The position numbers and the translations under genes were made by a program. Positions 7,779-36,595 of a DNA stretch of 64,000 bases are shown here, in pieces. Under the pieces are notes generated by a model, which did no database searches, had not been told where the DNA came from, and saw nothing but the letters and a program-made list of their open reading frames with translations. Source of the stretch: a virus (lineage: Duplodnaviria; Caudoviricetes); the IMG/VR virus record IMGVR_UViG_3300011008_000999; one strand, 5' to 3'. How positions within the stretch are numbered: position 1 is the first letter of the stretch; every line of letters begins with the position of its first letter.

Positions 7779-7800
7779 TGTTATACTTCTACATCTTGTT

Positions 7801-8835
7801 CTATATAATTTCTTTTAAGTAGCTAATATAGAACTCTATTTCTTGTCTGGACCATAATACTACATAATTAAGATTATTCTTTTGTGCAGTATCTCTCTTT
7901 TTTAGATCACTTTTTGTCCAAACATTAATAGCATTAGTGTATTGTTTATGTCCATTTTTTGCTTTATCTTTCCATATAGATAAAGTATCTAGATCGGCTT
8001 GACTATTTTTATCAAAGAAGTGATTATTATGTGACCAATATATATTAAGCTCTATATAAATATCATAGTCGATTAAATAAAAATCACAATAAAATGGATA
8101 TTTTGCTGAACTATATTGTGTCGTAAATCTTATACCAAGATTTGTTAATTCTTTCTCAAAATAATCTTCATCACTAGAATAATTACCATTCTGTCTCATA
8201 GTAGCATTAGCTTTTATTCTTGCATCTCTACTATTACCTGGATTAGTTGTTCCATATTTTTTCATTGATGTAGATATAATCTTATCTTTTACTGATGGAA
8301 GTTGATAAACATTAGTATATTGTTCACCATATTTATGTTTGATCGTATTAACTATACTCTCTTTATGAGAAGCTGATTTATTATAGCAAGTCATACAACC
8401 AATTCCAATTAAATGTTTTGTAGTTTGCTGACAAGTTTTACACCATTTTATAGTATCTTTTTCATGAGCTTTTTTCATATTTACTGAACCAGTTTTTAAT
8501 CCTACTTTACTAGAACTTATTCTAGCTTTTTCAGACTTATTTCGTTCAATCATGTGTTGTCTAGCTTGTTCTATATTTTTAGGATTACTTCTAAAAGTTT
8601 GATTCTGTTTTTCTATTTTGTCTGAATCTTTATTGGAACATTTACTACTACAATATGTATGAAAGCCGTTTGCAAGATTTATAAATTTAGTATCATTTCC
8701 GCAAACTTTACAAGTATGGTTACTATCAATATACTGTATATAGTACAAATCAGATGAAAGTTTATGAGCTTGTCTAATATGTGAACTTAGTGCTTTATAA
8801 CGTATAAAGTCTTTTTCACAAATTCTACATTTCAT
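7801..8835 (-). CDS. free-standing homing endonuclease, Vsr-like/PD-(D/E)xK C-terminal domain with N-terminal zinc motifs
   Basis: CRIC..H..H, CKVC, YCS..C, KYG repeats, then YPFYCDFY...IELN..WSH...VWT..D..K...LNYVVLW shared with 17295 and 35605. Confidence 0.8.
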   Translation of the reverse strand: MKCRICEKDFIRYKALSSHIRQAHKLSSDLYYIQYIDSNHTCKVCGNDTKFINLANGFHTYCSSKCSNKDSDKIEKQNQTFRSNPKNIEQARQHMIERNKSEKARISSSKVGLKTGSVNMKKAHEKDTIKWCKTCQQTTKHLIGIGCMTCYNKSASHKESIVNTIKHKYGEQYTNVYQLPSVKDKIISTSMKKYGTTNPGNSRDARIKANATMRQNGNYSSDEDYFEKELTNLGIRFTTQYSSAKYPFYCDFYLIDYDIYIELNIYWSHNNHFFDKNSQADLDTLSIWKDKAKNGHKQYTNAINVWTKSDLKKRDTAQKNNLNYVVLWSRQEIEFYISYLKEII

Positions 8836-8872
8836 CTGATTGTACCTCCACAGATTGATCTATATAGATAGC
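8825..8872 (-). other. putative very short split-intein N-fragment (AIYIDQSVEVQSDEM)
   Basis: starts right after Walker A GK, a classic intein insertion site; fits the block-A pattern A/C-h-x-x-D-x-x-V; conserved duplicate YIEQDVEV* at 7781-7807. Confidence 0.6.
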
Positions 8873-10117
8873 CTTTCCACCGCCAGTTTGATAAATATAT
8901 GCTGCATCAAATGGATATGATTCTCCTCCATTCCATTTATTATTCCTAGTATCGGTAAATAAGAATAAATGGTTATCAGAGTTAATCATAAAACAACGTA
9001 CTGGTTTATTCTTAACTACTTTTACATCTGAAATTAAGTAATCTGTAAGATTTCCAGGAATAATATCACCAGATTTAACCTCTGATGCAGTTATTGGGCA
9101 TATTTTATCTTTTCGTAAAATTGCTAATTTGTGTACATCATCTGCATATAAAACTATACTGTCATCATTATACTGACTCAGTGCATCTAATGTAAACTTA
9201 TACAGTTTATTAGATTCGTGAATTTCATATACTGCAAGTACTTTGACTGGTTTATTTCCATATCCAAATACTTCATCACCGACTTCAATAGTCTTTATAG
9301 TTTTATATCCTTTAGTAGTAGGTACTATTGTATTTAATCCTAAAGGTGATCCAACGCATAAGGCCTGAGGAGCAGATGGTGTATCAACTGTTTTAGCAAT
9401 TTTTCCATCATCATAGATATAATTAGATCTACCTTCATTCTTGATCGAGTTCAAATTCCAGGAAACTTCTCCAAGTCCTGAAAGACCAATAGGAATAAAT
9501 TCTGGTGGTCTTAACCAACTTCCTTTATATTTTGCAATATGAGGTGGAAGTGGTGTTCCTACGAAAGCACATTCTCTTGCAGCAAAGTCAAATTCATTAA
9601 CCCACTCATAATTAGGCAGATACTTATTAAGTGATAAACACAAGTTAACTGCAACTTGTTCCTTGAATGTGTTAGGATTGATTTTAATCGTAATTCTGTT
9701 TATCTTAGTACCTTCATATCCTAATTGGAAAGGTGGATTGTTAATATCCTTTAATTCAAATTCGCCAGTTTCTTTATTTTTAACCTTCGAATCGTTAGAA
9801 ATAACTGGCTCAAGAACTCCAAATACAGCTAATAATTCTTCTCTTTGTTTAGTGACTATTACTTTTTTAATGGTAGCGAGAATTACCATTGTAATCAATA
9901 AACCAAAAGCGTATAAGCCGAGCAATACCCAAAAGATCTTATGACCTTTGAGTGGTAAAATCTGGAATAGTACACCTAAACCAAGAAGACCAACAAGTAT
10001 AAGAGCATCTCTTTTTGAATAAGAATATCCGACGCTATTGCCATCGCCGATGTTCAATATTTTATTTGTTACAAACTGAGCTACGGCGACGACTAAGAAA
10101 AATACAAATATAAACAT
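8825..10117 (-). CDS. N-terminal half of a membrane-anchored FtsK/SpoIIIE (TcpA-like) ATPase, interrupted by an intein and ending in a split-intein N-fragment
   Basis: 3 TM segments; IPIGLSG..VSWNL...PQALCVGS[intein]TGGGK reconstructs Walker A GSTGGGK; ORF stops 15 aa later. Confidence 0.75.
   Translation of the reverse strand: MFIFVFFLVVAVAQFVTNKILNIGDGNSVGYSYSKRDALILVGLLGLGVLFQILPLKGHKIFWVLLGLYAFGLLITMVILATIKKVIVTKQREELLAVFGVLEPVISNDSKVKNKETGEFELKDINNPPFQLGYEGTKINRITIKINPNTFKEQVAVNLCLSLNKYLPNYEWVNEFDFAARECAFVGTPLPPHIAKYKGSWLRPPEFIPIGLSGLGEVSWNLNSIKNEGRSNYIYDDGKIAKTVDTPSAPQALCVGSPLGLNTIVPTTKGYKTIKTIEVGDEVFGYGNKPVKVLAVYEIHESNKLYKFTLDALSQYNDDSIVLYADDVHKLAILRKDKICPITASEVKSGDIIPGNLTDYLISDVKVVKNKPVRCFMINSDNHLFLFTDTRNNKWNGGESYPFDAAYIYQTGGGKAIYIDQSVEVQSDEM
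8888..9346 (-). other. mini-intein (153 aa, Pro1...Gln153, +1 Thr), class-3-like
   Basis: block A PLGLNTIVPTTKGYKTIKTIEVGDEVFG, block B ADDVH, block F PVRCFMINSDNHLFL; removal restores the Walker A motif. Confidence 0.8.
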
Positions 10118-10195
10118 CGTCTGCCTCCTTATACTATTATTTGAAGTTCAGTATATAAAGTTTTACGTTTATTCGATTTTTCATAAGTCTTACCT

Positions 10196-10705
10196 CTACA
10201 TATCTTCTGAATCTACTGAGAGAATTTTACCTGTTTTTGTATCGATAATTCGCTGGTTAGAAGATCCTCTAAAGGCAAGTGTAGTATCTTTGAGGTCTAC
10301 TCTAAATTCACCATCAACTACTACATCTACATACTTCATTACTTCTAAGTCTTTTGAGTCTCTATATAAGTTTCCAGTATAAAGCCAAATAGTCTTATTA
10401 GGAAATCTTTCCTTAAACTCCTTACATAATTCAGTTACTTCAGGTAAGTTTTTCTTGTACAATGGATCACCACCTGAAAGAGTTAATCCATCAATCTGAT
10501 CTGTTATACAGCTAAATAAATATTCTTTTACTTCTTTTGTGAATGGTTGTCCAGCATTAGGATTCCAAGATTCCTTGTTATGACATTCCTTGCAATGATG
10601 ATGGCAGCCTGCAACAAACAGAACAGTTCTCCAACCTTCACCATCAGCTAAGCTGGTACGATAAATAGTCATATAATTCATAATTTGCCTCCATTGATAG
10701 GTCAC
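10196..10705 (-). CDS. nrdG: anaerobic ribonucleotide reductase activating protein (likely start MNYM at about 10681)
   Basis: DGEGWRTVLFVAGC, radical-SAM CxxxCxxC (CHHHCKEC), GLTLSGGDPL, FRGSSNQR. Confidence 0.95.
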   Translation of the reverse strand: MTYQWRQIMNYMTIYRTSLADGEGWRTVLFVAGCHHHCKECHNKESWNPNAGQPFTKEVKEYLFSCITDQIDGLTLSGGDPLYKKNLPEVTELCKEFKERFPNKTIWLYTGNLYRDSKDLEVMKYVDVVVDGEFRVDLKDTTLAFRGSSNQRIIDTKTGKILSVDSEDM

Positions 10706-10743
10706 CTTTTACCTATCAATTTCTTTTCCGTGGTTTTATAAGG

Positions 10744-12489
10744 TTACTTTATTCGTCTAAGCATTTGCTTTGCAAATAATATTAGACTTAATATAAATGC
10801 TATGATCGATCCGACTATACTATAAATAGATATGCCAAATACAAGTGGTTCAATTCTAGCAGCACATAAGATAGCTGAACCTATAATAAAAGAACAAATA
10901 ACAAGTGCTAAAAACAGACCTGATAATGAGTGTTTGAACTCTTTCACTACAGTATCAGTATTATCAATATTCAAATTGATCTTAGCTTGTCCTCTTAAAA
11001 TAGCTCTTAACATATCATTTGTTAATGCCGGTAATTCGATTCCTTTTTGTAGAGATGTAACTGCATTCTGAACATTCTCGCCAATTATTTGTTTGATTTT
11101 ATCAGTTTCAAAAATATCTCTTAAAATGAAATCACGTAGAATTGTCATAAGATTAAGTTCATCAGTTAAACCTATAAGTACACCTTCAAGTGTTACTAAT
11201 CCTCTTGCTAATATGTTTATCGTTGATGAAAGCTGTAATCCATTAGCATTAACTGCTGATAGGATGTCACTTAACATAACACTTATATTTATCTCTTTTA
11301 AGTCGACTGAACTATACTTAGTTACAAGATAGTCTACGTCTGTATATAATTTTGCCTGATCTATTGGTTTATTTGTAGTAGTTAGACTCATTAGTGCAAA
11401 TATCAAAGCATGTGTATCTCTTTGAGTAATTGCAGTAATTGCCTTTTTTAAGGCCGCTTGTTCTGATCTAGGTACATGATGTACCATACCAAAATCAATC
11501 CAAACTATTTCAGGTATATCGTCATTCATTCTTATAAATATATTACCTTGATGTGGATCAGCGTGAAAAAATTCTTCGTTCAAAACCAGTGCAATAAAAT
11601 TCTGCGCAAGTCTATTACCGAGTTCTTTACAATCAATCTCAGGTTTATTAGGTGCTTCATCAATACCGAAACCATCTATAAACTCCATAGTAAGAACTTT
11701 TTATGTAGTGTACTCTTCATAAATCTTAGGACACGTAACATTTTTGTAGTGAGACATTGCATTTCTAAATTTTATTGTATTTGTGGCTTCAACGAAGAAG
11801 TTTAATTCTTGCTGTGTAATCTTCCATAAGTCATCTAATAACTTATATAGATCCACTCCACCAAGACCAGGAGCAAGTTTAAGTGGTCTTAAAACCATTC
11901 TAAATAACATAATATCCTGACGCATGATTATATCAATATCAGGTCTTTGGATTTTTACTACCACTTTTTGATTATTGCTTTTGAGAATTGCTTTATGAAC
12001 TTGACCAATACTAGCAGAACCTATAGGTTTTCTATTGAATGATGAAAACACTTCATCTACTGGTTTACCAAGTTCATGTTCAACAATAGAAGAAATAACT
12101 TCATACTCTAAAACGTTTGAATCAGAACAGAGTTTCTCTAATTCTTTACAATATGTTTTAGGCAGAAGTTCATTTCTTTTAGACATGATTTGACCTAATT
12201 TAACAAATGTAGGTCCTAAATCTTCTAATAACATTCTTAACTTTGTAGGTGTTAAACCGTCTTTAGTTAGTTTATGCTTTCTAATTACTTTTAGAATTTT
12301 CCAAGCTCTTTGACGTTTTTCCTTTAGTGTAGCGCCAGGAATATCTTCTTGAGTTTTAAAAATTCGGTTCACGATCTTATTGTTGTCATCCAGACCATAA
12401 ACCTTATACTCGTAAGTTTCTACGTCAATATCACTAAGTTTTATAGGAGTGGATGTAGACAATAATTCAGGATTATTTGACTTTTTCAT
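10744..12489 (-). pseudogene. UbiB/ABC1 (AarF) atypical kinase split by one in-frame TAA at 11701-11703
   Basis: LGPTFVKLGQ, SASIGQVH, VVVKIQRP, then YTT*KVLTMEF, FFHADPHQGN, IDFGM, two C-terminal TMs; both ORFs share one frame. Confidence 0.85.
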
Positions 12490-12536
12490 CTAAATCTCCT
12501 ATAAGTCTTATTGTTTAATTTCCACACGACTAAGTA

Positions 12537-12737
12537 TTAAGAAATAATCTCAAATACATTAAGTTCTGCTTCTCCGTACTCAGTCAATTTATCAATCGCC
12601 TTCTGAGCTGATTCTACTGAAACAAATTTCTTTGCTTCGCCTTCATTGAAAGTATTTACAAAATGTTTGTTTTTATAATCAATGTACTTTACAAATCCAT
12701 TCTCATGACTATAAGTATTTGTCCACTTAATTTTCAT
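12537..12737 (-). CDS. hypothetical protein
   Basis: ORF with AAAGGA SD. Confidence 0.65.
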   Translation of the reverse strand: MKIKWTNTYSHENGFVKYIDYKNKHFVNTFNEGEAKKFVSVESAQKAIDKLTEYGEAELNVFEIIS

Positions 12738-12764
12738 ACTTTGTAATTTCCTTTCTTTAGATTT

Positions 12765-13067
12765 TTACTCTCTAGCATCTTCATACATAGTTGTAATACG
12801 AGCTTCTAATTCACTATCATTTTCATTAATATCAACATCAAGTATTACATCTCTTGGATTATCTCCAAATTTCTGCTTATTACATTCGCCACACATTTTA
12901 GAGACAAAAATCTCACGATATGTAGAAGGGAAAAATTGCGGATTAAAAATCTCCTGAATAGGTCTGCTTCTACGCATAGATTCCTCTAATTTTGATCTAG
13001 TAACAAATGTAGCTCTTTCTTTATAACAAAATGCGCAAGTAAATTCGTGTCTTTCTAAACGTTCCAT
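12765..13067 (-). CDS. hypothetical protein with two CxxC pairs
   Basis: CAFC...CGEC, GGAGG SD. Confidence 0.7.
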   Translation of the reverse strand: MERLERHEFTCAFCYKERATFVTRSKLEESMRRSRPIQEIFNPQFFPSTYREIFVSKMCGECNKQKFGDNPRDVILDVDINENDSELEARITTMYEDARE

Positions 13068-13268
13068 GATTATTTCCTCCTATAGTCTTAAATTGACTAT
13101 CTAGTTACTTAATTTCTTTAATATATAAACTATAAACTGCATAAAAAGATGTTCCCAGATGTCATTCTAGGAACCTCTAGAGACAATAAAATGAGTGCAA
13201 TAGTTATTACCTCCATTGCACTCATCCATACTTTAATTATATAATTAAATAGCTCTTATTTAAGCTTT

Positions 13269-14567
13269 TTAATCAGCAAGCTCAACAAGATATCTGCAAG
13301 CTACCTGAGCTTTATCATATACGATAACTTCATCTCTTCGAATATATGAAGCAGAATTCGCATGAGCATGTACTGACTGATAACCCATCTTTCTGAATTT
13401 CTCAAACTTCTTACCATCAAGATCACAAACACGGATTTCTCCATTAATTCGATCATAGTTATTAGTGCAATCGAATGAATTGCCTTTAATAACTGCATTT
13501 ACAAACATCCATCTGGATCTACGATCTGAATCTCTTCTTGTATAGTTCCATGATTTATTAGGACTCGGTGCGCTATAGATACCATCACCGAATGCAGATC
13601 CACAATAAGCAGCGTTTGCAGGTCGAATGATAAGACCATTTGCCATGATCGAAAGAACGTTCTCAGCACCAGTACCATGCCAGTACAACTTAATGTTTGT
13701 ATCACAATCTTCAAGACCATTGGTCTTAAGATACTCAGCAAACTCAGTATCTCTTACCGGATTTGCCACTTTATACACATTCTTAACTCTGAAAGATCCA
13801 GAATCAGATTCTTTCTTGAGTTTATCTTCGATCATCTTAACTTCCTTAGCAGTTGCAGTAGTAAAACCAAAACCAAATGCCTGCGAAATAGTATTTACAC
13901 CGTCTGCATTATTAGTTGCTTTACTCTGAAGGACAATGTTATCCAACAGTGACTGCTCATTACTAATATACTTATCGAGGTCTTCTGCTTTAGGAAGCTG
14001 TGTAGGATTATAGACTGCATCTCGTACATTCTTGATCTTTCTAGGAATGATCGTCCAAATCTTCAACAGCGCCTTATTAAACTGATCAGCACAGTCCTTA
14101 ATGAAGCTTGCCTTTGTCTGAGAATTATCTGTAACTCCCTTTTTCTTACACCAGTCTTTATAGCTATCAGGTGTAGCGAAGTCATTCTTAATAGTAGTAA
14201 GTGTATTGATAAGGTCCTGAACTTCTGCAATAGTAGCAGCATTCAACGTACCAATGTCAGTCTGATTAGAGACGTACTGTCTCGAAATGGCAAGTAGATG
14301 ATTGAGCAACTTCTCAATTTCCGGATCATTCTCAGGTTTGTAACCTTTCGTAACTGTCGTCGTCTTAGAAATGTCCTGATAACCTTTCTTCACCTTTGAA
14401 TTGTACTTAGATGACCAATCCTTAATAGGATAAGTAGTCTTAGTTCCATCAGTACCAACTCTTCCCCATGTTACAGTAAATGTTCCATCATTATTATCAT
14501 GCATGTGATAGAACTTGTTATGATTATCAGCGGTTACCATAATGAGCTTTACATCTGCGTTTGCCAT
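13269..14567 (-). CDS. WGR-domain PARP-like ADP-ribosyltransferase
   Basis: NKFY...VTWGRVG (WGR domain), helical region, YWHGT...FGDGIYSA...DEVIVY (H-Y-E triad). Confidence 0.9.
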   Translation of the reverse strand: MANADVKLIMVTADNHNKFYHMHDNNDGTFTVTWGRVGTDGTKTTYPIKDWSSKYNSKVKKGYQDISKTTTVTKGYKPENDPEIEKLLNHLLAISRQYVSNQTDIGTLNAATIAEVQDLINTLTTIKNDFATPDSYKDWCKKKGVTDNSQTKASFIKDCADQFNKALLKIWTIIPRKIKNVRDAVYNPTQLPKAEDLDKYISNEQSLLDNIVLQSKATNNADGVNTISQAFGFGFTTATAKEVKMIEDKLKKESDSGSFRVKNVYKVANPVRDTEFAEYLKTNGLEDCDTNIKLYWHGTGAENVLSIMANGLIIRPANAAYCGSAFGDGIYSAPSPNKSWNYTRRDSDRRSRWMFVNAVIKGNSFDCTNNYDRINGEIRVCDLDGKKFEKFRKMGYQSVHAHANSASYIRRDEVIVYDKAQVACRYLVELAD

Positions 14568-14639
14568 GCTTTTTACCTCTTTTCTTATATCTTACGTTGT
14601 GTGTTGTTGGTATAACCAACCTTATTAGATCTTAAATTT

Positions 14640-14679
14640 ATTATATCAAGAAATAGTATAATAGTATAAATGTAAATAG
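14640..14679 (-). promoter_or_regulatory. sigma-A-type promoter of the PARP gene, spacer lengthened by an 8-bp tandem duplication
   Basis: TTTACA-25 nt-TATAAT; ATAGTATA repeated at 14653-14660 and 14661-14668. Confidence 0.6.
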
Positions 14680-14701
14680 TTTAGTTAAAATATTTTTAGC
14701 T

Positions 14702-14905: not shown

Positions 14906-14923
14906 ATAATGATCTCCTTTCTT

Positions 14924-17110: not shown

Positions 17111-17179
17111 AATAATTTGTCTCCTTTTAATAAATTCTATTTTTCGATCTTTATAAAAGTAAGTTCATTACTATATAAA

Positions 17180-17236
17180 TAAATAGCTCTTTAACTATAA
17201 TCTTATTATAACACAGTTGTTATAAAAAGTAAATAG
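17180..17236 (-). promoter_or_regulatory. sigma-A-type promoter followed by a GAGCTATTTA box
   Basis: TTTACT (17228-33)-17 nt-TATAAT (17205-10); GAGCTATTTA at 17180-89. Confidence 0.7.
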
Positions 17237-17245
17237 TATTACAAT

Positions 17246-17286
17246 AAAAAGATATAGCCTTTAATTAAAAAAGACTATATCTTTTT
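17246..17286. terminator. intrinsic terminator after the nrdD/endonuclease unit
   Basis: AAAAGATATAG...CTATATCTTTT. Confidence 0.7.
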
Positions 17287-17294
17287 GTTATTTT

Positions 17295-18197
17295 TTAGCA
17301 AGTAGTACAAGCTGCACGAATATCTTCTACTGCTCCATGATGTTTTACACGATGCTGAACTTCATCAATCTTTCCATCATTAAATGCTGTGAGAAAATCC
17401 TCTATCATACTAGATTGATTCCATAATACAATATAGTTTAGTTGTTTACTATATTCTTTTTTACGTATATCTAGACTTGTCCATACATTTATAGCAATTT
17501 TGTAGTACTTACTATTTTTACTTTTCCACATATTTAATTTTTCTATATCTTGTTCATTAGTTTCATCAAAATAATGATTATTATGCGTCCAATGGAAATT
17601 ACATTCTATAAATAAATCTAATGACTTAATATAAAAATCACAATTAAATGGATAACGTTCATCAGAATATTGTCTTACTATATCAGTTTCTTCAAATATG
17701 GTTAACAAATACTCATAAAATTTATCTTCAGCTTTAGATGAACAAAATGTATTATTTTTACGTTTTGTGTCATTTTGACGTTGAATCATTTCTTTCGAAT
17801 GAACTTTTTCAATAACATTAGGTTGGTTAAATGGATTTTTTACACCATATTTTAATAAACATGTTTGTTCAACTTTTTGTTTATACTTAGTTGTTTTATG
17901 TCCTTTACTAATATTATTACACCAGTCTTCAGTAAAGACTCTACCTTTTAAAGCTTTAGATAGATTTTGTTTATGCTCTTCAGAATCAGGTAATTTTCCA
18001 TATCTAAAACCATCAGGTAATGGTTCAGAAGCTTTTATACACTTCTGAACCATACCATTAGTTATCCATTTAGTTCCTTTAGTAAAAGAACCATAGTTTG
18101 TTCTACCTCTAATAAAACCTTCTGGAATAGTATCAGTATCATAAAATTTTTTATCTATAATACCATTTGTATACCAATGTTTTATCATTATGAACAT
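17295..18197 (-). CDS. homing endonuclease (NUMOD3-like and Vsr-like domains) fused to a duplicate NrdD C-terminal tail; likely start 18188
   Basis: W-x-TNG repeats, SEEHKQNLSKALKG, RYPFNCDFYIKSLDLFIECN; ends AFNDGKIDEVQHRVKHHG...CTTC. Confidence 0.8.
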   Translation of the reverse strand: MFIMIKHWYTNGIIDKKFYDTDTIPEGFIRGRTNYGSFTKGTKWITNGMVQKCIKASEPLPDGFRYGKLPDSEEHKQNLSKALKGRVFTEDWCNNISKGHKTTKYKQKVEQTCLLKYGVKNPFNQPNVIEKVHSKEMIQRQNDTKRKNNTFCSSKAEDKFYEYLLTIFEETDIVRQYSDERYPFNCDFYIKSLDLFIECNFHWTHNNHYFDETNEQDIEKLNMWKSKNSKYYKIAINVWTSLDIRKKEYSKQLNYIVLWNQSSMIEDFLTAFNDGKIDEVQHRVKHHGAVEDIRAACTTC

Positions 18198-19273
18198 CCT
18201 TTACATACATTAGCAAAATTGTCTGCATTAACTGTACCATGGTGTTTTACTCTATGTTGAACTTCATCAATCTTTCCGTCATTAAACGCATCAAGATAAG
18301 ATTCAGTAATATAACCAGTAACTCTTCTAAGTCTCTGGATATTTGTGCTCTTGCATGCAGGACACTCATTTCCGATCTCACCTGACCAACCACAATCACG
18401 ACATGTATCAAGACTAAGGTTGATTCCAAGATAAGGAATATCTTTAGCCATAGCATACTGAACAAGCTTTCTAAGAGCTTTAATATTCTTGCTAGCTGCA
18501 GTATCGATTTCAACATAAGTGATACATCCAGCATTAGAATATCCAGTAAGTTGTGCTTCAAGATCAATCTTCTCGAATGGAGTCATATCACGCCATACAG
18601 GAATATGTATAGAGTTGGTAAAGAACTCTTTATCAGAAACATTCTTAATTACTCCATACTTCTCTCTAAACTTCTTGAGTGCAGTATGGCAAAGAGACTC
18701 TGCAGGTGTGTAATATACACCAAAATTAATATGAATAGTCTGTCCCTGAATAGTATAAGTATCAGCTTTATATTCTGCACACTTCTTATTAAAGAGAGCT
18801 TCAATTCGTTTTGCTAACTCCATACCTTCTTCAGTAGTTTGATCTTTACCAATAAGAATCTGAAGAGTTTCAGCTACGCCTAACTGACCAATAGCAAGTG
18901 TACCATGTTTAAGAGCTGAAATGATTCCTTCCTTAGGAATATAACCAAGCATTGTTCTATTCTGATACATAAATGCTGCAGAAGCTGGACTCTGACTTGC
19001 AATAAGTTTAAATCTTTCAACAAGACCGTCTTTACACTCTTCAATCTTTCTAGTAAGAATCTCAAAGAAATCTTCAATATTCTTCTCACCAATACGACCT
19101 TTAGCTTTCATAGCAAGAGTAGGAAGAATAATAGTAGCAGGAGCTAAGTTACCTCTACCATCTTTCTGATTTCCTGAATAGAAATAATCCTTAGGTGGCT
19201 TACCATACTTAACGATCTCATCTACAATATAACCGAAATTAAAATTAGCATCATAACCATTGTATGTTCTACA
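18188..19273 (-). CDS. nrdD: anaerobic ribonucleoside-triphosphate reductase, exon 2
   Basis: CRT..., GRGNL, TPAESLC, FTNSIH, CxxC...CxxC zinc site, glycyl-radical motif RRVTGY. Confidence 0.95.
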   Translation of the reverse strand, partial: CRTYNGYDANFNFGYIVDEIVKYGKPPKDYFYSGNQKDGRGNLAPATIILPTLAMKAKGRIGEKNIEDFFEILTRKIEECKDGLVERFKLIASQSPASAAFMYQNRTMLGYIPKEGIISALKHGTLAIGQLGVAETLQILIGKDQTTEEGMELAKRIEALFNKKCAEYKADTYTIQGQTIHINFGVYYTPAESLCHTALKKFREKYGVIKNVSDKEFFTNSIHIPVWRDMTPFEKIDLEAQLTGYSNAGCITYVEIDTAASKNIKALRKLVQYAMAKDIPYLGINLSLDTCRDCGWSGEIGNECPACKSTNIQRLRRVTGYITESYLDAFNDGKIDEVQHRVKHHGTVNADNFANVCKGCS

Positions 19274-20387
19274 CGTTTTATCTAATGTTACCATTAGCAC
19301 TGACTATATCTTCTACTTAAATGTTAATTCATTTAATCACAATTTGCACATGTGAGGATTTCTCCGTAGTCTTCCGCTTCGGTTCTCAGGTGGGTCTTGT
19401 TTCCTTCTTCCACCGACGGTGCTTATCTCCGTCCCTACTCCCTTACATTCATCGGGGATAGTCGATACACTTTTTATTTTAAGAGTTCTAATTTATAGTT
19501 GTCATAATAGATAATATTTGTTGGAAAGTTTAGTCTATTTTTAAGACCTAAATGCTTATATAAAGCATTTCTACTTCCAAATATGAGTTCTGTACCATCA
19601 GCTAAGTTGGTCATCTTAACTTTAGTACCTCTGCTATGTTCATTTGGCATAGCATAATTTTGATATTCATCATCTTCAAATGCAATTAACCATTCTTTTC
19701 TAAATAAAGTATTATCAGAATGAGATGCTTTAGCCATTAACATACCTCTACTTTTTATATTAAAAAAGTTAGCTGTTTCACCTAAAGTATCAAAATGATG
19801 TTCTTCACCAGTAATAATAGATTTAACTTTTAATTGGTTACTATTACCATTATTTTTACCTTTATTGGCATTTGAAATTTTAGAATGTATAATTGTCATT
19901 TCTTTGTCTGATTTGCATAAGTATGTATTTCCACCTTCTCCACCAGGTGTAAGATTATATCCTATACTACCATTAGTAGAATTGTAGTATGCTATCCAAA
20001 ATTGTTCTCTTTCATTAAGTTCCTTTACTGAATAACATTCTTCAATTTGTTCATATTTGAAATTGTTTTTACCATACTTATGAATAGCTCTAGCTAAATA
20101 ACTTTTAGATGTTGCACTAGCACCATCGCAATGTCTAATAAATCTAGCTTCTATACTCTTATTATAAACTTGACCAATATAAATTTTGCCATTTATAAGA
20201 TTAGTTATCTTATAAATATATCCGTATTTGAACTCATACATTTTTATAACCTCTTAAAATAACTTAGCACGGTCTCATCAATCATTCATTACACATACAA
20301 ATAATGAAGGACCTAACCGTTAGCCACATTTCTGTGACACCCTCGAGCGAGGTTCAAAAGATTTTAGATGAGCTGCAGTTTACACTT
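19274..20387 (-). ncRNA. group I intron in nrdD (1114 nt)
   Basis: 5' exon ends in U (ATG GGT), intron ends in G before TGT AGA ACA, restoring MGCRT; core motifs GACUA (~19458) and AAGAUAUAGUC (~19302-19312); ACCGUGCUAAG near 20263. Confidence 0.9.
19474..20241 (-). CDS. intron-encoded GIY-YIG homing endonuclease
   Basis: GYIYKITNLINGKIYIGQ...R...H...E...GYN. Confidence 0.9.
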   Translation of the reverse strand: MYEFKYGYIYKITNLINGKIYIGQVYNKSIEARFIRHCDGASATSKSYLARAIHKYGKNNFKYEQIEECYSVKELNEREQFWIAYYNSTNGSIGYNLTPGGEGGNTYLCKSDKEMTIIHSKISNANKGKNNGNSNQLKVKSIITGEEHHFDTLGETANFFNIKSRGMLMAKASHSDNTLFRKEWLIAFEDDEYQNYAMPNEHSRGTKVKMTNLADGTELIFGSRNALYKHLGLKNRLNFPTNIIYYDNYKLELLK

Positions 20388-21761
20388 ACCCATCGTGCTC
20401 ATAATTTCTACAGGATCAATAATAGTCTCATCGATTTCAACTACATCTCCGTTAAGAACCATTTTGTAATGTCTAGCTTCATTCTTATTTTCATTTACCC
20501 AAGCTGCAAGTTTAGCCATCTTCTCTTTCGAGATCTTAGCGAGAACTGCTCTCTTGTGTTCTATATCTTTCATTCTACCAGCAGTATCAATTGACCACTG
20601 TGCATTTGTGTAGTTAGGATAAAATCTCTTTGCAGTACATCTAAGTGCCTTAAGGAAAATATCATAGTTAGGTGTGCCTGGCATACCATTGATTTCTGTA
20701 TGATACTGGAAAATTCCACAAGGGAAAATAGGTGTCTTATGAAGAGGACCAGTTCCATCAAGAGTCGCATCAAGAATAGCATGAGAAACCATTCTACCTT
20801 CAGTAAGTGTACAAGTACCATAGTTAATAGAACTAAACGGTAACTGCTGACCACTTCTTGATTGAAGAGAGTTGAGGTTATGTACAAGAGCTTCTGCACC
20901 CTGATGCACTTCTCTAACAGTTAAATCATAAGCATACTGGAAACAAGGATCATCCTTATAGTCGTCAATAGAAAGATCTGCACAATTAGCAGGTACCTTC
21001 CAATCTTCATGCTGAATATACTTTTTACCATCTCTAAGATGTTTAAAGAATGACCATCTAACACTAGGTACAGCTGACCAATCTAAGTGAGTATATGAAA
21101 CTCCACCAAACTGCTGAAGTGACTGAACCTGCATATAAACTGCAGCCTGTTGAAGAAATGTACTAGCAGATCTTGCAGGTCTAATATCAGTCTGCTTAAT
21201 ATGCACACCATCTTTATTCATGTTATCTACAGGAATTGATAAACAGTTATGCATTCCTGATGAATAAGAATCAAGATCATGTGTATAAACTTCATTATTG
21301 TTATGATTATCACGAGCTGTTTTGCTCATTATTTTAAGTGCATTATCTTTAAGAAGGATTCTAGCTGCTTCATTCATTCTTCCTGAGAATGATCTTTCAT
21401 CACAGTTAGCATTAGAGTTCTCTATATTAGAACCACTAAGTTTCTTTTCAAAAGCTTTAATGATATCTGACTGATAGACATGCTCCTTCTGTCTATCATA
21501 GTGATAAGTAATATAGCTTTTAGCTACTTCTTTATATGCAGTCTGCATCAGACGATTTTCTACCATATCTGAGATGTTTTCTGCATCTACAATATTTACG
21601 TTTTTCTTATTAAGTTCTTCTTCAATCTGATCGGCTATTCTGTTAGCCATAAATTCAGGCACATTTTCTTCTTCAGTAGCATTAGACGCTAATCGTATGG
21701 AGTTTACGACTTTTGATTTGTCGAAATCTTCCAATTTCTTATTATATTTTCTAACTCGCAT
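20388..21761 (-). CDS. nrdD: anaerobic ribonucleoside-triphosphate reductase, exon 1 (ATP cone); spliced product 819 aa
   Basis: ATP cone, ENSNAN, HDLD, NC, QFGG, LQSRSGQQLPFSSINYG, TPIFP, YPN, TMG. Confidence 0.95.
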
Positions 21762-30434: not shown

Positions 30435-30446
30435 GACTTAGTCTCC

Positions 30447-31118
30447 TTACTCTGTTATTGTTATGTAACTCGTTGCAGTTGCTCCATCAGTTGATGTCCA
30501 ATAAACTGGAAATGTTCCAAGTCCAGTAATTGCACTAGGATCACACATGACAGTTCCTGAACTTGCATCTACTGCACTTTTAAGCGCCACTTCAATTGCA
30601 TCATTTCCTCCGCTCATAGACGCACTTACATCATGTACTTTAATATAAGGTGTAGTTTTAGGTGATTCGGTTTTTTCACCGCTATTGTTATTTCCACTAT
30701 TATTATCAGAATTTCCATTGTTATTAGATGGTTTTGTTGTAGTTTGCTGAGTTTGTGGTTCAGTATTTTTAGATGTTTCTTCAGTATCTTTAACAGTCTC
30801 TTTCTCTGCTGCTTGTTGTTCAGCTTCAAGCTCAGCTAATTTTTCATCGAGACTTGCTTCTACATCTGTCATAGCTTGATTATAAATCTCGTCATAGAGT
30901 TCTTTTCTTACTTCTTCTTTGACCTCTTCACGAAGCTCTGCTTTAATAGTTTCTACATTAGTAGTAGCAACTTCAGTAGTTTCTTCTAAAGGATTAGTCG
31001 CAACTTGTGTAGTATCTTGTTTATGTGATTTTGAACCAATATAGTAACCAGTAAAACCAACTAAAATCATACATACAACGGCTGCTATACAAAGAAGAAT
31101 AATTGTCGTCTTTTTCAT
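30447..31118 (-). CDS. membrane-anchored protein with C-terminal Ig-like domain
   Basis: N-terminal TM, coiled coil, low-complexity linker, GTFPVYWTSTDG motif shared with neighbours. Confidence 0.7.
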   Translation of the reverse strand: MKKTTIILLCIAAVVCMILVGFTGYYIGSKSHKQDTTQVATNPLEETTEVATTNVETIKAELREEVKEEVRKELYDEIYNQAMTDVEASLDEKLAELEAEQQAAEKETVKDTEETSKNTEPQTQQTTTKPSNNNGNSDNNSGNNNSGEKTESPKTTPYIKVHDVSASMSGGNDAIEVALKSAVDASSGTVMCDPSAITGLGTFPVYWTSTDGATATSYITITE

Positions 31119-31131
31119 GTGATATTCCTCC

Positions 31132-32427
31132 TTATTCAGTTAAATATACAGTTTGATCACAGGATAAACCATTTTCTGCTTCCCAATGAATAGAATATGT
31201 ACCAGGTCCATCAGGCTGAAATGATATAAATGGCCCAGACGTCATTTGTGCTTTTACTCCATCGTAATTATAATAGTGCACATTATTTGCTGCTCGTATT
31301 ACAAAAGCTTGACCAAATGGTCCATCTGTAGAAACAGACCATGTAAATGCATCAGCAACTATTTGAGGATTTCTACCTGTATGTGTACCATCTTCATTAG
31401 TTGGTGTATTTTGCCAATCTTCCGCTCTCCATTCATCATCTCTAGAATGATCATTATAATCAATCTGATCATTTGTTACACCAGGATCATTTGCACTACC
31501 ATTACCACCTCCACCAGGTTTATTATTGTTATCATGTTCAGTTTGTGCAATCTGCTGAATTTTATCATCAAATTTTCTTGCAACATCTGTAGTATTGCCA
31601 GAATCTTCAGCTAAATCAACGTCATTAAGCTTAATATTACCATCAGCTAATTCAGCTATCTGAGTGTCAGTTAATGTTACTACATATAACGGTAAAATTA
31701 GTTCAGTCTTGTTACCAGATTCATCAGCAAATGTATAAATGCATTCTCTATACTCTATAGAATTTCCTACCCAATCTGGTTTATCTGGATATGTAATAGT
31801 AACATCAGAATAATTATCTGAATAGTCTAATATGAAATCTTTTACATTCCAACTAAGTGTACCATAATATTCTGAAGTTGTTGTATGATTTCGAACTATA
31901 TACATTGGTTTATACTGACCATCTATACTTTTCTTTAATTCTTCTTGAGTAATAGGATCTTTTAATCTAGCAACTGGTGCGACAAAATCAATTACATTTA
32001 CGGTAAGTGCAATTTGTTTCTTATTAGCACTATTACTAGAATAATATGTAACTAAATAAGATCCAATAACTTCTGTATTTACTTCACCTTCAATTGAGTA
32101 TGTGTATACTGAATTATCTGGATTCATAAATGCTTCATATTCTTTTGTATTTACCTCATCAATAAATTTTTCAGCACTAAAATCAAATTGATAAGGAATA
32201 TCTACTGAAAATCCATCATCAGTTTTATTTACGTATTTTAACACTAATTGAGGATTTACAAACATGTCATATAAATAATCTCTAAAAACAAAGCCTGAAG
32301 TACAAGCAATTATAATAAGAGAAATTATTGTTGCAAGTGCAATTTTAGGCAAAGGATTGATGTGAACCTCTTTACCTAAAGTAATATCAGCAGTACCAGC
32401 GTATCGCCATGTCATTACTTTACTCAT
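31132..32427 (-). CDS. membrane-anchored Ig-like repeat (DUF5011/HYR-like) protein
   Basis: TM, GEVNTEVIGSYLVTY...VNVIDFVAP, ADESGN. Confidence 0.75.
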   Translation of the reverse strand: MSKVMTWRYAGTADITLGKEVHINPLPKIALATIISLIIIACTSGFVFRDYLYDMFVNPQLVLKYVNKTDDGFSVDIPYQFDFSAEKFIDEVNTKEYEAFMNPDNSVYTYSIEGEVNTEVIGSYLVTYYSSNSANKKQIALTVNVIDFVAPVARLKDPITQEELKKSIDGQYKPMYIVRNHTTTSEYYGTLSWNVKDFILDYSDNYSDVTITYPDKPDWVGNSIEYRECIYTFADESGNKTELILPLYVVTLTDTQIAELADGNIKLNDVDLAEDSGNTTDVARKFDDKIQQIAQTEHDNNNKPGGGGNGSANDPGVTNDQIDYNDHSRDDEWRAEDWQNTPTNEDGTHTGRNPQIVADAFTWSVSTDGPFGQAFVIRAANNVHYYNYDGVKAQMTSGPFISFQPDGPGTYSIHWEAENGLSCDQTVYLTE

Positions 32428-32452
32428 GACAGCTCATCATCTCCTTTCGTCT

Positions 32453-33535
32453 TTAATCTCCCCACATTCCAGTACCATCATCATATATATTAACACCGCT
32501 ACCTCCATTAGTGTTTTGATTATTATTAGCGTCATTATTAGTAGGTTGAGTTTGTGTAGGAGTAGTATTCTGATTATTATTTCCACTGGGCTTAGCAGTA
32601 GAAATTTTGGTATCAGGATGCTCCTTATTAAATTCATTTACAAGTGGTTGTAATTCAGCTAAGTCATTATTTAATGTAGTTACTATAATATTTTCATCAA
32701 ATGTTATAACTAATTCAACACTTGCAGAATCTTTAAGAGCGTTTTCTCGATTCTCTGCCACAATATATTCAATTCTATAATTACGAACTGGTTCAATATG
32801 TAATGGTAAAATATCTTCTTTATATTTTGTATCAGCTGTAATATGATTATCTACCCATTCAGATAGATCATCTGATTTTAGATCATTTAACCAAGATATG
32901 TCTTTATACATATTTCTAATATCAGATAATGAAATTTCTGCACCGTCGTCATCATAGATAGTCCAACTAGTAGATACATCATAGTAGTTATCACTTACAT
33001 TTTTAATGTAGCTGTCTGGACTAAATGTTTTTATAGCTTCATCTGTACAGGCTATAGTTTCAACATTTTTAGTAAGTTCAATTAAAGGTTTTTCATTATC
33101 AGATATTCTAATTGTTACCGGAATTTCTTGCGAATTTATTCTATTTGAGGATCTATATACAATAGTATATTCACCACAAACATCTGTATTGACATCTCCT
33201 TCTATATCACATTTATATCGTGAATTTTCAGATATAAATTTGTCATATCTAAGAGTTCTATTTTCATCAATATATGCATACTTGTCAAATTTAGAATTTA
33301 CTTCTATATCGATAAAATAAGTTCCATTTTCAGATTTTACTAAATTGTTTAGTTCAATATGAGGATTAAATATTACATCATATAGATAATTTCTGAGAAG
33401 GAAGCCAGCCATACAAGCAACTGCAATTAAGCCTATAATAGAAAATAAAATAATTTTAGGGGCTTTACTCTCCTTAATTTCACCAAACACAATGTCTGGT
33501 TTGCCCTTATATTTCCACTTCATTACTTTACTCAT
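32453..33535 (-). CDS. membrane-anchored Ig-like repeat protein (paralogue)
   Basis: TM, GDVNTDVCGEYTIVY...ISDNEKP, VSDNY. Confidence 0.75.
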   Translation of the reverse strand: MSKVMKWKYKGKPDIVFGEIKESKAPKIILFSIIGLIAVACMAGFLLRNYLYDVIFNPHIELNNLVKSENGTYFIDIEVNSKFDKYAYIDENRTLRYDKFISENSRYKCDIEGDVNTDVCGEYTIVYRSSNRINSQEIPVTIRISDNEKPLIELTKNVETIACTDEAIKTFSPDSYIKNVSDNYYDVSTSWTIYDDDGAEISLSDIRNMYKDISWLNDLKSDDLSEWVDNHITADTKYKEDILPLHIEPVRNYRIEYIVAENRENALKDSASVELVITFDENIIVTTLNNDLAELQPLVNEFNKEHPDTKISTAKPSGNNNQNTTPTQTQPTNNDANNNQNTNGGSGVNIYDDGTGMWGD

Positions 33536-33578
33536 ATTGTTTAGCTTCCTTTCAGAAATTCATAGTATTTCCTCTTTC

Positions 33579-34736
33579 TTATTTAGATTCTTCTTCAGTA
33601 GTTTCAGTTTCTTCTGTTGTTTCTTCAGATGGCTCTTCTGTATTTTCTGTAGGTAGTTCACCTTCTACAATAATAGTCTGAGTACATGTTTGTCCATCTG
33701 TAGTAAACCAAACTACATGATAAGTGCCTGGTTCTGTAACAGGTTCGGTAATAAATGCTCCAGAGACTGGATATAACACAACTTCTCCATAGTAAGTTAC
33801 ATTATTCATTGCACTTTTAACAAATTCAGAAGGATCATTAGAAAGAGACCAAGTAAAGTCTTTTGCACTCATTTCAGGTATAACCACTATTTCTGGTTCA
33901 CCTTCTTTTTGTTTCCAGTTACCTACGAGAATATTAAGTTCTCTTTCCATTTCTGCAATACGTTCTTTTTGAGCGTCTGCAATAGCATCATATTTATCCA
34001 TAACAATAATTGGAAGAATAGTGACACTAGAATTTCCAGCTTTATCTACTGCTGTATAGATAACTTCGAAGTTTTTAGTTCCAGTTCCGTCTTCAAGATC
34101 TATATCTTGACCTGTATTTTCAAGTTTAATATTTTTTTCTTCGTCAAAGTCGTCAGTAACTTCTAGAATATATTTGTTTGCATTAAAGTCTAAAGTACCT
34201 AATGACGAACCTTCATTATGAACACCTCTTACTAAAACGATTGGATCATATTCACCACCTTCATTAAGAGTAGCATCTAATTTAATTACAGGTGCAGTAA
34301 GATCTTTTACATGGACTAATACTTGTACACTTCTCTTATTCATTTTATTTGCAGATGAATAAGTAAGAGTATAGTCACCAAGAGTATTAGTATCTACTGA
34401 ACCTTCAATAGAATAAGTATAATCCTTATTGTTAGGATCCATAAAGTCGTTATATTTAAGTGTGTTATTTTCATCAATATAATTTTCTGGTTTAAAGTCA
34501 TATCTATACGGAATATTTAGATAGTAACCAGCTTCACTGTAATTTGCATATACATTTACTTGTGGATTATAAACAACGTCATAAATGTAATCTCTTAAAA
34601 TGAAGCCAGCGCCGCATAGAGTTAAAATAACGAAAGCCGATATTATTGCTATGATAGTAGGCAAAGGGCTATTCGCTTTGGCGCCGAATGACTCGGATGC
34701 ACGACCCTTATAATACCATTCTTGTATTTGACTCAT
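33579..34736 (-). CDS. membrane-anchored Ig-like repeat protein (paralogue); true start MSQIQEW at 34736
   Basis: GAGGAG SD, ATGA overlap, GSVDTNTLGDYTLTY...VKDLTAP, AVDKAGN. Confidence 0.75.
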   Translation of the reverse strand: MSQIQEWYYKGRASESFGAKANSPLPTIIAIISAFVILTLCGAGFILRDYIYDVVYNPQVNVYANYSEAGYYLNIPYRYDFKPENYIDENNTLKYNDFMDPNNKDYTYSIEGSVDTNTLGDYTLTYSSANKMNKRSVQVLVHVKDLTAPVIKLDATLNEGGEYDPIVLVRGVHNEGSSLGTLDFNANKYILEVTDDFDEEKNIKLENTGQDIDLEDGTGTKNFEVIYTAVDKAGNSSVTILPIIVMDKYDAIADAQKERIAEMERELNILVGNWKQKEGEPEIVVIPEMSAKDFTWSLSNDPSEFVKSAMNNVTYYGEVVLYPVSGAFITEPVTEPGTYHVVWFTTDGQTCTQTIIVEGELPTENTEEPSEETTEETETTEEESK

Positions 34737-35608
34737 ACAACTCCTCTTCCTTTCAAGAATATTAGTGCAATTAAACCTATGTCTATTGCTAAAACTACTA
34801 TATCTAATATAGTATTTATCAATCCACCAGTAGTGCAAGTTACTAAGAAATGACATTTATACCAACAATGTCCGCCAATTGGAATTGGCCACAATAAAGG
34901 CACTCCACCGTCTGCGAAGAAATCCTCCAGACAGTGAAATAAATAGCCAAAACCTATACATAGACCTAAGATCCTTAAATGATTATAATCTAATGTAAAT
35001 GTATAGATCAGAACAAGTACTGGAAGAATATAACTAATTAGTTTAGGCAGTTTGAACCATTTTACTAATCTATATAAGATCATATCACTACCACAAAGAA
35101 CTGCCATAAAGAGAACTATAATGAAGAATAAAATTGCTACATTATTTTGTAAGAATCTGCCAAATGTTTCTTCTCGTATTCCACCAAAAATTGTTGTTTC
35201 TCCAGTAGGCATTCCAAACCAAAATAGACATATTATTCCTGCACTCGCAACTAATGTGTGCCAAAAATATCTATGTGGAGTCATCGGCATTCTTTCTCTT
35301 CTTGTATGAACTAATGTCCATATAACAGAGCTTGTAGACTGCATAAAAATAGTAATGATGCTTCCCATGAATCCTAATGTGGATCCAGCAGAACTAGAAC
35401 AGTTATCTAGGTCAGGAAGTAGGGCACCACCTACTAAAACTGTTAAGCCTACAATAAAGAATAAGATGTTATCTTTCAATAGCCAAAGAGTTTCTTCGAA
35501 GACATTTACAGGAATAAGCAAACAAATGCATAGGAACATTACGCTTAGGAGAGCGTGAGTTTTTCCCATCCAACCATATACGTTGGAATTCACTATAAAT
35601 TTTCTCAT
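34733..35608 (-). CDS. membrane-bound metal-dependent hydrolase (YdjM-like)
   Basis: MGKTH, LLPDLD, HRYFWHTL, H-x-x-ED, GVPLLWP. Confidence 0.8.
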   Translation of the reverse strand: MRKFIVNSNVYGWMGKTHALLSVMFLCICLLIPVNVFEETLWLLKDNILFFIVGLTVLVGGALLPDLDNCSSSAGSTLGFMGSIITIFMQSTSSVIWTLVHTRRERMPMTPHRYFWHTLVASAGIICLFWFGMPTGETTIFGGIREETFGRFLQNNVAILFFIIVLFMAVLCGSDMILYRLVKWFKLPKLISYILPVLVLIYTFTLDYNHLRILGLCIGFGYLFHCLEDFFADGGVPLLWPIPIGGHCWYKCHFLVTCTTGGLINTILDIVVLAIDIGLIALIFLKGRGVV

Positions 35609-36561
35609 TTTTTAATTTTCCCTTCGATTTCTTGTTTGAACTGTATAATATCTTGATTATTCCAAAGCACTATATAATTCAAATTATACTTAATTGCGCT
35701 ATTATGTTTTAATACGTCACTATTTGACCAAACTTTAACTGCAGCTTTATACTGTTTATGCCCTAATTTAGCTTTTTCTTGCCATTTACATAATTTAGCT
35801 ACATCATTTGGATTATTTTCATTAAACCAATGGAAACCATGCATCCAATATAAATTAAGTTCAATAAACATATCTGATGATTTTATATAAAAATTACACA
35901 TATACGGATATCTGTTATCAGATGAATAATTTCTAAATACATCTTGTTTATCAAATATAGTTAACAACCATTCATAAAAATCATTTTCTGGTTTAGACGT
36001 ACTTAATGTACCATTTTGTCGTTTAATTTCTCTTACTTTATAATAAAAGCCATCTTTTTCTGTTTGAGATCTATTTAACATATACTCTCTAGTAGATTTA
36101 CTAATTTTATTACGTACTTCTTGTAATTTAACTGGTTCTTCTACACCATATTTTTCTAAATTATTTTTATGTCTAGTGTTAATAACTCTATCAGATATTT
36201 CTTTAGATTTTTGACAATTATCTACACCATAATGTTTTATTAAGGTTTGTTTCATTTTATTTTTAACTATATCTGATTGATTTGAACTTTCAACTCCATA
36301 TCTTTTCAAACATGTAGATTTAATTTTATCTTGTGTAGTTTTATCTAATTGTGCATGACTAATACAACAATGATTTTGATAACCTTTAAACAAACCATAA
36401 AAAGGTGTTTCATTATTGCATGTATCTAACTTACATATTCCTTCGTTATCAGTTCTTATATATAAATCATAATATTGTTTAGCTGATAAATTATGTTTAT
36501 GTAAATGAGATCCCATACCTCTAGAAGTTGTTGCATTAAAGCCACATATTGCACAAATCAT
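35605..36561 (-). CDS. homing endonuclease of the same Vsr-like family (CDFY changed to CNFY)
   Basis: CAIC..H..H, YGV repeats, RYPYMCNFYIKSSDMFIELN..WMH. Confidence 0.75.
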   Translation of the reverse strand: MICAICGFNATTSRGMGSHLHKHNLSAKQYYDLYIRTDNEGICKLDTCNNETPFYGLFKGYQNHCCISHAQLDKTTQDKIKSTCLKRYGVESSNQSDIVKNKMKQTLIKHYGVDNCQKSKEISDRVINTRHKNNLEKYGVEEPVKLQEVRNKISKSTREYMLNRSQTEKDGFYYKVREIKRQNGTLSTSKPENDFYEWLLTIFDKQDVFRNYSSDNRYPYMCNFYIKSSDMFIELNLYWMHGFHWFNENNPNDVAKLCKWQEKAKLGHKQYKAAVKVWSNSDVLKHNSAIKYNLNYIVLWNNQDIIQFKQEIEGKIKK

Positions 36562-36595
36562 TTCTACACCTCCATTGTCTTAATTTCCTTTCTTA

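Follow-up and report, generated by a model that had tools for sequence, protein, structure and literature searches.

Vsr-like homing endonuclease genes of a giant rumen phage probably carry substitute ends for the genes they invade

RESULTS

Three endonuclease genes at the ends of conserved phage genes

Three paralogous genes for Vsr-like homing endonucleases lie in a 64,000-nt stretch of viral DNA (IMG/VR record IMGVR_UViG_3300011008_000999; the whole stretch is called the window below), which is part of a jumbo phage from the ruminant gut, a giant rumen phage. Each of them probably arrived as a cassette that carries a substitute gene end and that inserted at the very terminus of a conserved phage gene. 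This reading is supported strongly at nrdD (locus 1), well at an FtsK-like gene (locus 2), and reasonably at the start of a gene for a YdjM-type membrane hydrolase (locus 3). At nrdD and the FtsK-like gene, the cassette would consist of a new 3′ end, a stop codon, and a ribosome site followed by the endonuclease gene, and it would have been inserted from a few to about 35 codons ahead of the native stop. At the hydrolase gene, the order would be a ribosome site and the endonuclease gene followed by a new ribosome site, ATG, and 13 codons, placed right after the native ATG. Because the cassette brings a substitute end, the host gene would need no intron or intein to stay whole, and the native end would remain on the far side as a nonfunctional remnant.

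The window was found in bovine and sheep gut metagenome sequencing runs, and all of its genes lie on the minus strand. Two related phage genomes are present in IMG/VR. G001 (394 kb, with terminal repeats) shares genes that are ∼90 to 95% identical to those of the window, and the proteins of G002 (290 kb) are 60 to 74% identical. A search of INPHARED phages showed no close relative, the only matches being to the endonucleases, at ∼69%, in Lak megaphages.

An earlier note on this DNA, made from the sequence alone, had pointed to three endonuclease open reading frames (ORFs) with a common C-terminal motif, to an identical duplicate of the nrdD tail, a duplicate of the FtsK-like tail and a weaker one of the hydrolase translation start, and to an upstream copy that supplies the endonuclease ribosome site at the first two loci. 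All of these were found again, with the coordinates and scores given below. The note had also expected that alleles lacking an endonuclease would end in one terminus that matches the stranded copy. Such empty alleles were found for each of the three sites, and their one terminus does match the stranded copy. The nrdD site is empty in L108, L109, L110, and G002 and occupied in the window, G001, and L120; the FtsK-like site is empty in L112, L113, and G002; and the hydrolase site is empty in G001 and occupied in L119. Between phages, the endonuclease is more conserved than its host gene (98% versus 91% nt identity, 94% versus 78% nt identity, and 85% versus 61% amino acid identity), which is the pattern expected of a homing element.

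Two tails flank the endonuclease gene at nrdD

The second exon of nrdD, encoding the glycyl-radical part of the anaerobic ribonucleotide reductase, occupies positions 18188 to 19273 (Pfam NRDD at 3.9e-71, and Gly_radical); the ORF is listed from 19300, and the exon start at 19273 was taken from the joint in an RNA contig. Its last part (tail A, 18188 to 18310) runs from just past the Gly-Tyr codons to the stop codon, which overlaps the ATG of endonuclease gene 1. The endonuclease gene proper, as delimited by the paralogue alignment, covers 17406 to 18188. Its ORF has no stop of its own and reads on, in frame, into a second nrdD tail (tail B, 17295 to 17405), after which come a hairpin and a T run. 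The two tails share an 18-residue stretch, at 18236 to 18289 in tail A and 17334 to 17387 in tail B, that is identical in amino acids with 6 synonymous differences in 54 nt, and the similarity reaches six codons further upstream. Tail A also holds the endonuclease ribosome site: an AAGGA in its final codons, 8 nt ahead of the ATG at 18188. In the all-frame comparison of endonuclease flanks (see the survey below), this locus scored 119 for duplication, compared to a null 99th percentile of 44.

Comparison with empty alleles points to tail B as the native end. A degenerate-pattern scan of metagenome contigs recovered three nrdD alleles with a single tail and no endonuclease gene (L108, L109, and L110), and the site is also empty in the more distant G002. 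L110 carries a tail of the same type as tail B, alike in length, in the residues before the repeat, and in its Cys-x-x-Cys end; in L108 and L109 only the proximal part is tail B-like, and the distal end is different. Compared to tail B, tail A is longer by three residues and has another ending, a type unlike the empty alleles. The homology of tail B to the empty alleles starts directly after the Gly-Tyr codons of the glycyl-radical motif, and the insertion point is therefore placed there. Over the 24 nt that follow these codons, tail A and the empty allele show 8 differences. When IMG/VR was scanned with an exact pattern of the nrdD tail, G001 was the sole hit. Tails like tail A are present in other nrdD alleles, and tail A itself appears to be a natural allele of foreign origin, not a special recoding. 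The recoded replacement end of the earlier note would accordingly be one taken from elsewhere and not a purpose-made one.

The second line of evidence is the identity profile between the window and G001, which has the same occupied layout. The nrdD body is 90.6% identical at the nucleotide level up to a sharp boundary, with the last upstream mismatch cluster ending at 18338. Identity then rises to 99.3% in tail A and 98.4% in endonuclease gene 1, and falls past the endonuclease to 95% in proximal tail B, 74% in distal tail B, 77% in the intergenic sequence, and 82% in the next gene. The value for distal tail B is that of the local background. It follows from this tract that tail A and the endonuclease gene form one recently shared unit, and the unit appears to have been set into two diverged backgrounds, each retaining its own native distal tail. 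The third occupied allele, L120, has an endonuclease gene 94% identical in nucleotides next to an nrdD gene of 78% nucleotide identity. Its tail B has decayed, with one stop and one frameshift, which argues that the stranded copy is dispensable and the in-frame fusion to the endonuclease incidental. RNA contigs cover nrdD exon 2 and hardly any of the tail junctions.

A short duplicated tail at the FtsK-like gene

The FtsK-like gene of the window (8825 to 10117) encodes an N-terminal piece of 430 residues that contains membrane segments and, in its P-loop, a mini-intein, and that ends in a short conserved tail. The PF01580 FtsK_SpoIIIE domain is found in longer homologues. Its imported replacement tail occupies 8825 to 8863 and overlaps the ATG, at 8835, of endonuclease gene 2 (7801 to 8835; homing endonuclease in PHROGs). 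Within this tail, a GGAGG at 8845 to 8849 lies 8 nt before the endonuclease ATG, at a place where empty alleles have GTAGAA-type codons and no GGAGG. The imported tail appears to create the ribosome site of the endonuclease. The stranded native tail (7781 to 7807) overlaps the endonuclease stop and is out of frame with the endonuclease. An 8-codon copy at 8843 to 8866 and the out-of-frame copy at 7781 to 7807 are alike at 6 of 8 residues. When the tails of upstream genes were anchored and compared with the sequence past the endonuclease against a cross-locus null, this duplication had an empirical P of ∼0.003 to 0.01.

Further support at this locus comes from the downstream sequences. The empty allele L113 is collinear with the stranded tail of the window and continues into the same terminator hairpin as that at 7750 to 7779, detected in a terminator scan, which would formerly have belonged to the native end of the FtsK-like gene. 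The stranded copy of G001 is a different and longer one, and the genes past it are unrelated to those of the window. The empty allele L112 has exactly the stranded tail of G001, followed by the downstream genes of G001. The stranded 8 to 11 codons in the window and G001 therefore match two different empty alleles, each with the downstream context of the respective phage. The site is empty in G002 too.

Several features of the FtsK-like protein were noted in addition. The mini-intein, of ∼153 residues, sits between the P-loop halves, starts with Pro, and ends with Gln here and with Asn in most relatives; alleles without it occur in the close relatives P0035 and P0040. In all relatives, the protein ends ∼15 residues past the P-loop.

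A probable substitute start at the hydrolase gene

At the third locus the substitution would concern the 5′ end. The hydrolase gene (34733 to 35608; Pfam YdjM at 1.4e-14) lies downstream of endonuclease gene 3 (35605 to 36561), which appears as a blastn gap in G001. The imported ribosome site, ATG, and 13 N-terminal codons cover 35570 to 35625; the ATG overlaps the endonuclease stop (ATGA), and 13 codons precede the point where the shared sequence resumes. On the other side of the endonuclease gene, the stranded native ribosome site and ATG (36573 to 36592) have the same arrangement, up to ATGG, as in G001 (empty) and L119 (occupied). The stranded ATG-G now contributes to the GGAGG site of endonuclease 3, which runs into the endonuclease ATG. 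The stretch of ribosome site plus ATG is present twice, and 16 of 20 nt are alike by eye between 36573 to 36592 and 35606 to 35625.

The starts were read in the 74 closest of 115 hydrolase homologues, among which the short native start is the common type. For example, the hydrolase of G001, which lacks the endonuclease, has a short N terminus behind its ribosome site. The long start was seen only with the endonuclease or its 3′ remnant upstream in the four long-start alleles whose context was viewed (L116, L117, L118, and L119). L119 is occupied, with the left junction as in the window, and its endonuclease and hydrolase are 85% and 61% identical, respectively, to those of the window in amino acids. 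L116 (2300 to 2500) retains ∼150 nt of a decayed endonuclease 3′ end, with stops, before a long-type start, and in L117 and L118 only the last 20 nt of the endonuclease are left. These alleles appear to fit the usual course from invasion through decay to loss, in which the imported start would persist, and L116 would show the end stage of this course.

The endonucleases and their predicted fold

The three endonucleases (ORFs 7801 to 8835, 17295 to 18188, and 35605 to 36561) have an overall identity of 28 to 36%, with a strongly conserved C-terminal domain that contains the motif named in the earlier note. PHROGs labels two of the three, endonuclease 2 included, as homing endonucleases. Pfam found DUF7487 in the N-terminal parts (at 6.9e-11 in endonuclease 3), and no Pfam model matched the C-terminal nuclease domain.

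An AlphaFold model of endonuclease 3, built on 33 sequences, had a mean pLDDT of 93. In VIA-align, residues 187 to 317 aligned with Vsr (1cw0_A; Z 8.5, root mean square deviation 3.3, 107 residues) and with I-Bth0305I (3r3p_B; Z 7.1, 92/98 residues). The next best matches were other PD-(D/E)xK nucleases, and the Z values are moderate. A Foldseek search with the whole model gave only rows with E > 1, among these Vsr and 3r3p, and a profile search of PDB sequences with the endonuclease did not match 3r3p and gave nothing useful. On the modeled structure, the C-terminal domain is predicted to be a Vsr-like domain with the Vsr-type PD-(D/E)xK fold. In the 33-sequence alignment, the columns of Glu192, Asp223, His241, and Asp282 are invariant or nearly so; these are candidate equivalents of the composite catalytic residues (Glu, Asp, His, and Asp) of the EDxHD/Vsr-like enzymes. 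Codon 223 of endonuclease 3 (35893 to 35895), in the Cys-Asp-Phe-Tyr motif, encodes Asn in the window compared to Asp in 32 of the 33 aligned relatives, and the L119 orthologue keeps the Asp.

The family comprises 5,939 cluster representatives at E ≤ 1e-10. Ten very long members showed only extra DUF7487 repeats and no host-gene domains. G001 has further paralogues, at L009 (727 to 2541, minus strand), L011 (846 to 2532, minus strand), and L021 (1233 to 2274, minus strand). One of them precedes a DNA methyltransferase as an in-frame fusion, another comes immediately before an ORF for the Walker B half of an FtsK-like ATPase, and a third has a frameshift inside the nuclease motif.

Survey of homologous loci

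The survey drew on 77 IMG/VR loci with endonuclease homologues. The 57 with an intact ORF were compared, their flanks in all frames, against a null made up of cross-locus pairs. The sole high score that is a coding duplication came from L042, which is the G001 orthologue of locus 1. The high scores of L058, L085, and L094 came from noncoding repeats with stop codons inside. In L085 (2004 to 3606) and L058 (2046 to 4157), the endonuclease is flanked by two group I intron copies; those of L085 are 195 nt long, ∼95% identical, and located in a capsid-gene region, and the two loci are on unrelated phage contigs. This may be the same logic of duplicating the target, applied to an intron. The upstream gene ends at the endonuclease start in 31 loci, and in these the anchored tail test detected no significant tail duplicate beyond the two loci of the window and their G001 counterparts.

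An intron in nrdD and other neighboring features

A group I-type intron lies further upstream in nrdD (19274 to 20387) and holds a GIY-YIG endonuclease gene (19474 to 20241). Position 20388 is followed directly by 19273 in a metatranscriptome contig that differs from the window by a single mismatch at most, so that 1114 nt are removed and canonical NrdD is restored. The same intron without the ORF occurs in a DNA run, and the nrdD intron of G001 (Rfam Intron_gpI, 20 bits) also has no ORF. At the nrdD intron site, G002 has a LAGLIDADG-like ORF, and the metagenome locus L121 has a split intein and an endonuclease at the same codon.

Elsewhere in the window, a gene for an ABC1/UbiB-type kinase (10744 to 12489) is split into two adjacent ORFs of 262 and 314 codons; in the related contigs L112 and L113 it is a single gene of 580 codons. 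One ORF of 4378 codons spans 44340 to 57476.

DISCUSSION

How the cassettes would spread

The arrangement at the three genes suggests a homing scheme. The enzyme would cut the empty allele in or near the stretch that is replaced, and the imported end would be different enough to escape cutting. The stranded native end would serve as the distal homology arm during repair, so that any genome with the target gene would be open to the cassette, regardless of what follows that gene.

Alternative explanations

A duplicated gene end on either side of an endonuclease gene could also be produced by a self-splicing group I intron, in which case the mRNA would be spliced from the first to the second copy and the downstream copy would be the real exon. 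Group I introns do occur in phage nrdD, the present gene included, whose intron lies 1 kb upstream and is seen spliced in a metatranscriptome contig, and the endonuclease family has intron-associated members (L085, L058, and I-Bth0305I [PMC3239194]). Rfam scans of 7000 to 37000 and 17150 to 20450 showed no intron at the three sites, but the same scans missed the real nrdD intron, so their silence is weak evidence. Likewise, none of the RNA contigs joins tail A to tail B across endonuclease gene 1, where cover is almost nil, which says nothing either way. The case against splicing comes from the layout. There is no noncoding room for a ribozyme core, the ORF of endonuclease 1 starting on the tail A stop and reading into tail B; by contrast, the core of the real nrdD intron takes up ∼290 nt beyond its ORF. 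The tail A reading frame is intact and conserved in three phages, splicing to the tail B of L120, with its stop and frameshift, would destroy NrdD, and the downstream copy at locus 2 is truncated and out of frame. Splicing at these sites is therefore very unlikely. A fractured gene with a split intein at the insertion sites, of the type described in PMC2677866, was also considered and rejected: intein halves flanking the endonuclease were not found. No Hint-type domain was detected by Pfam at nrdD tail A or B or at the hydrolase start, where the flanks are duplicated host-gene ends, and the empty FtsK-like alleles end at the same place as the occupied one, so endonuclease 2 did not fracture that gene.

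The three genes could instead be ordinary free-standing endonuclease genes between other genes, the repeated ends having come from unrelated local duplication or illegitimate recombination and not from a mobile cassette. Most homologues in other phages do lie between genes with no detectable duplication, and jumbo phage genomes undergo much recombination. Coincidence of this kind is nevertheless improbable. The high-identity tract shared with G001 extends from the glycyl-radical codons in nrdD to inside the stranded tail, with tail A and the endonuclease as one unit. Moreover, the two nrdD copies differ in tail type, which makes them different alleles and not a tandem duplication, the imported tails bear the ribosome site of the endonuclease, and the layout recurs at three unrelated genes beside three paralogues. 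It is also conceivable that endonuclease 1 makes use of its fused NrdD-like tail, for instance as a mimic that docks on NrdD partners, in which case the tail would not be a remnant. The tail is in frame with the endonuclease, and the window and G001 agree in all of its first 18 residues. However, in L120 this tail is cut by a stop and a frameshift although the endonuclease is otherwise 91% identical, its distal part diverges at the neutral background rate (74%), and the other two paralogues have no such tail. A function for the fused tail is thus hardly credible.

Some observations weigh against the proposal that each endonuclease arrived with a substitute gene end. Among the 57 IMG/VR loci, a coding-end duplication was found only at the G001 orthologues of loci 1 and 2 (L042 and L051); the flanking duplications that the earlier note proposed to look for beside homologues were found at these two and at no other of the 57. 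Therefore, end duplication is not established as a trait of the whole protein family. The survey limits the claim rather than refuting it, because short or decayed remnants would escape the test. At nrdD, the stranded copy matches the empty alleles at 80 to 86 of ∼108 nt and the working copy at 76 to 83. The stranded copy is only modestly closer because the empty alleles come from diverged relatives, and its match with them is mainly one of tail type. At locus 2, the endonuclease of the window and G001 is 94% identical and the host gene 92%, and because these values are so close, one old insertion followed by downstream recombination appears as likely as two homing events. The hydrolase "duplicate" is a 20-nt ribosome-site region in AT-rich DNA, and the long start could in principle be an older natural allele. 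Finally, Asn223 may mean that endonuclease 3 of the window is inactive and no longer cuts.

Relation to known mobile elements

The earlier note had left it open that the mechanism might be undescribed; in principle it is not, since it is already known for the mobile ORFs (mORFs) of fungal mitochondria (PMC3630166). These create gene hybrids in Glomus atp6, atp9, cox2, and nad3 (PMC3630166), and an atp6 hybrid in Allomyces macrogynus is cited there from Paquin et al. (1994). In a mORF, the endonuclease comes with a foreign C-terminal segment that continues the host gene in phase, and the native C terminus lies downstream and matches a relative without the ORF (PMC3630166; related remarks are found in PMC6279837 and PMC7487136). 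In both the phage cassettes and the mORFs, a free-standing endonuclease ORF lies close to the 3′ terminus of a conserved gene, with a foreign C-terminal piece ahead of it and, behind it, a native C terminus that matches an ORF-less relative; the ORF is sometimes in phase with the neighboring pieces. They differ in that the host is a phage and not an organelle, the nuclease is Vsr-like and not LAGLIDADG or GIY-YIG, and the imported end also supplies the endonuclease ribosome site. In addition, the end substituted by one of the three phage cassettes is a 5′ one, made up of ribosome site, ATG, and first codons. The literature search found only organelle papers for this layout and no phage report; most subscription journals lay outside the search, and absence there is not proof. 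The finding is thus a phage version, with another nuclease family and a 5′-end variant, of a mechanism described in organelles.

Phage introns and fractured genes are known to harbor homing endonucleases of the Vsr-like "EDxHD" type (PMC3239194 and PMC2677866). Like I-Bth0305I and the fractured-gene ORFs, the endonucleases described here are predicted to have a C-terminal Vsr fold and a modular DNA-binding N-terminal region, and they occur in genes of phage DNA metabolism, where their ORFs and the neighboring ones overlap by short stretches. They differ from those enzymes in that the profile search of PDB sequences and the Pfam search showed no sequence-level match to the family or to a nuclease model, their N-terminal part consists of DUF7487 repeats, and the host gene at the insertion site is repaired by a duplicated gene end and not by a split intein or intron. 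Another case of an endonuclease that travels with extra sequence keeping a split host gene working is the MobA-gene 60 bypass cassette (bioRxiv 10.1101/2022.08.31.505936). MobA, however, relies on translational bypass and not on a substitute terminus. T4-like phages carry the free-standing homing endonucleases SegF, SegG, and MobE, which spread by "intronless homing." The cassettes described here would resemble the Seg and Mob systems in that an endonuclease gene beside its target is spread by double-strand-break repair with coconversion of the flanks, the donor being protected by sequence differences, but the Seg and Mob genes lie between genes and are not known to leave a duplicated gene end.

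Implications

The occupied and empty alleles side by side illustrate how a selfish nuclease gene settles in essential phage genes without splicing machinery. Stray gene-end fragments and odd in-frame fusions beside endonuclease genes in phage annotations may often be such remnants, and phage gene termini, for example that of nrdD, can be mosaics from other lineages. For the endonucleases themselves, the three loci offer three natural pairs of predicted target and immune sequences for a large uncharacterized nuclease family, from which specificity could be mapped and perhaps used. Whether substitute ends are a general third way, beside introns and inteins, for free-standing homing endonucleases to colonize coding sequence in large phages is a more tentative proposition, to which we give slightly less than an even chance. 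If so, imported ends would be selected both to escape cutting and to provide the translation signals of the endonuclease, stranded ends would act as portable homology arms, and the termini of essential phage genes would be continually swapped between lineages.

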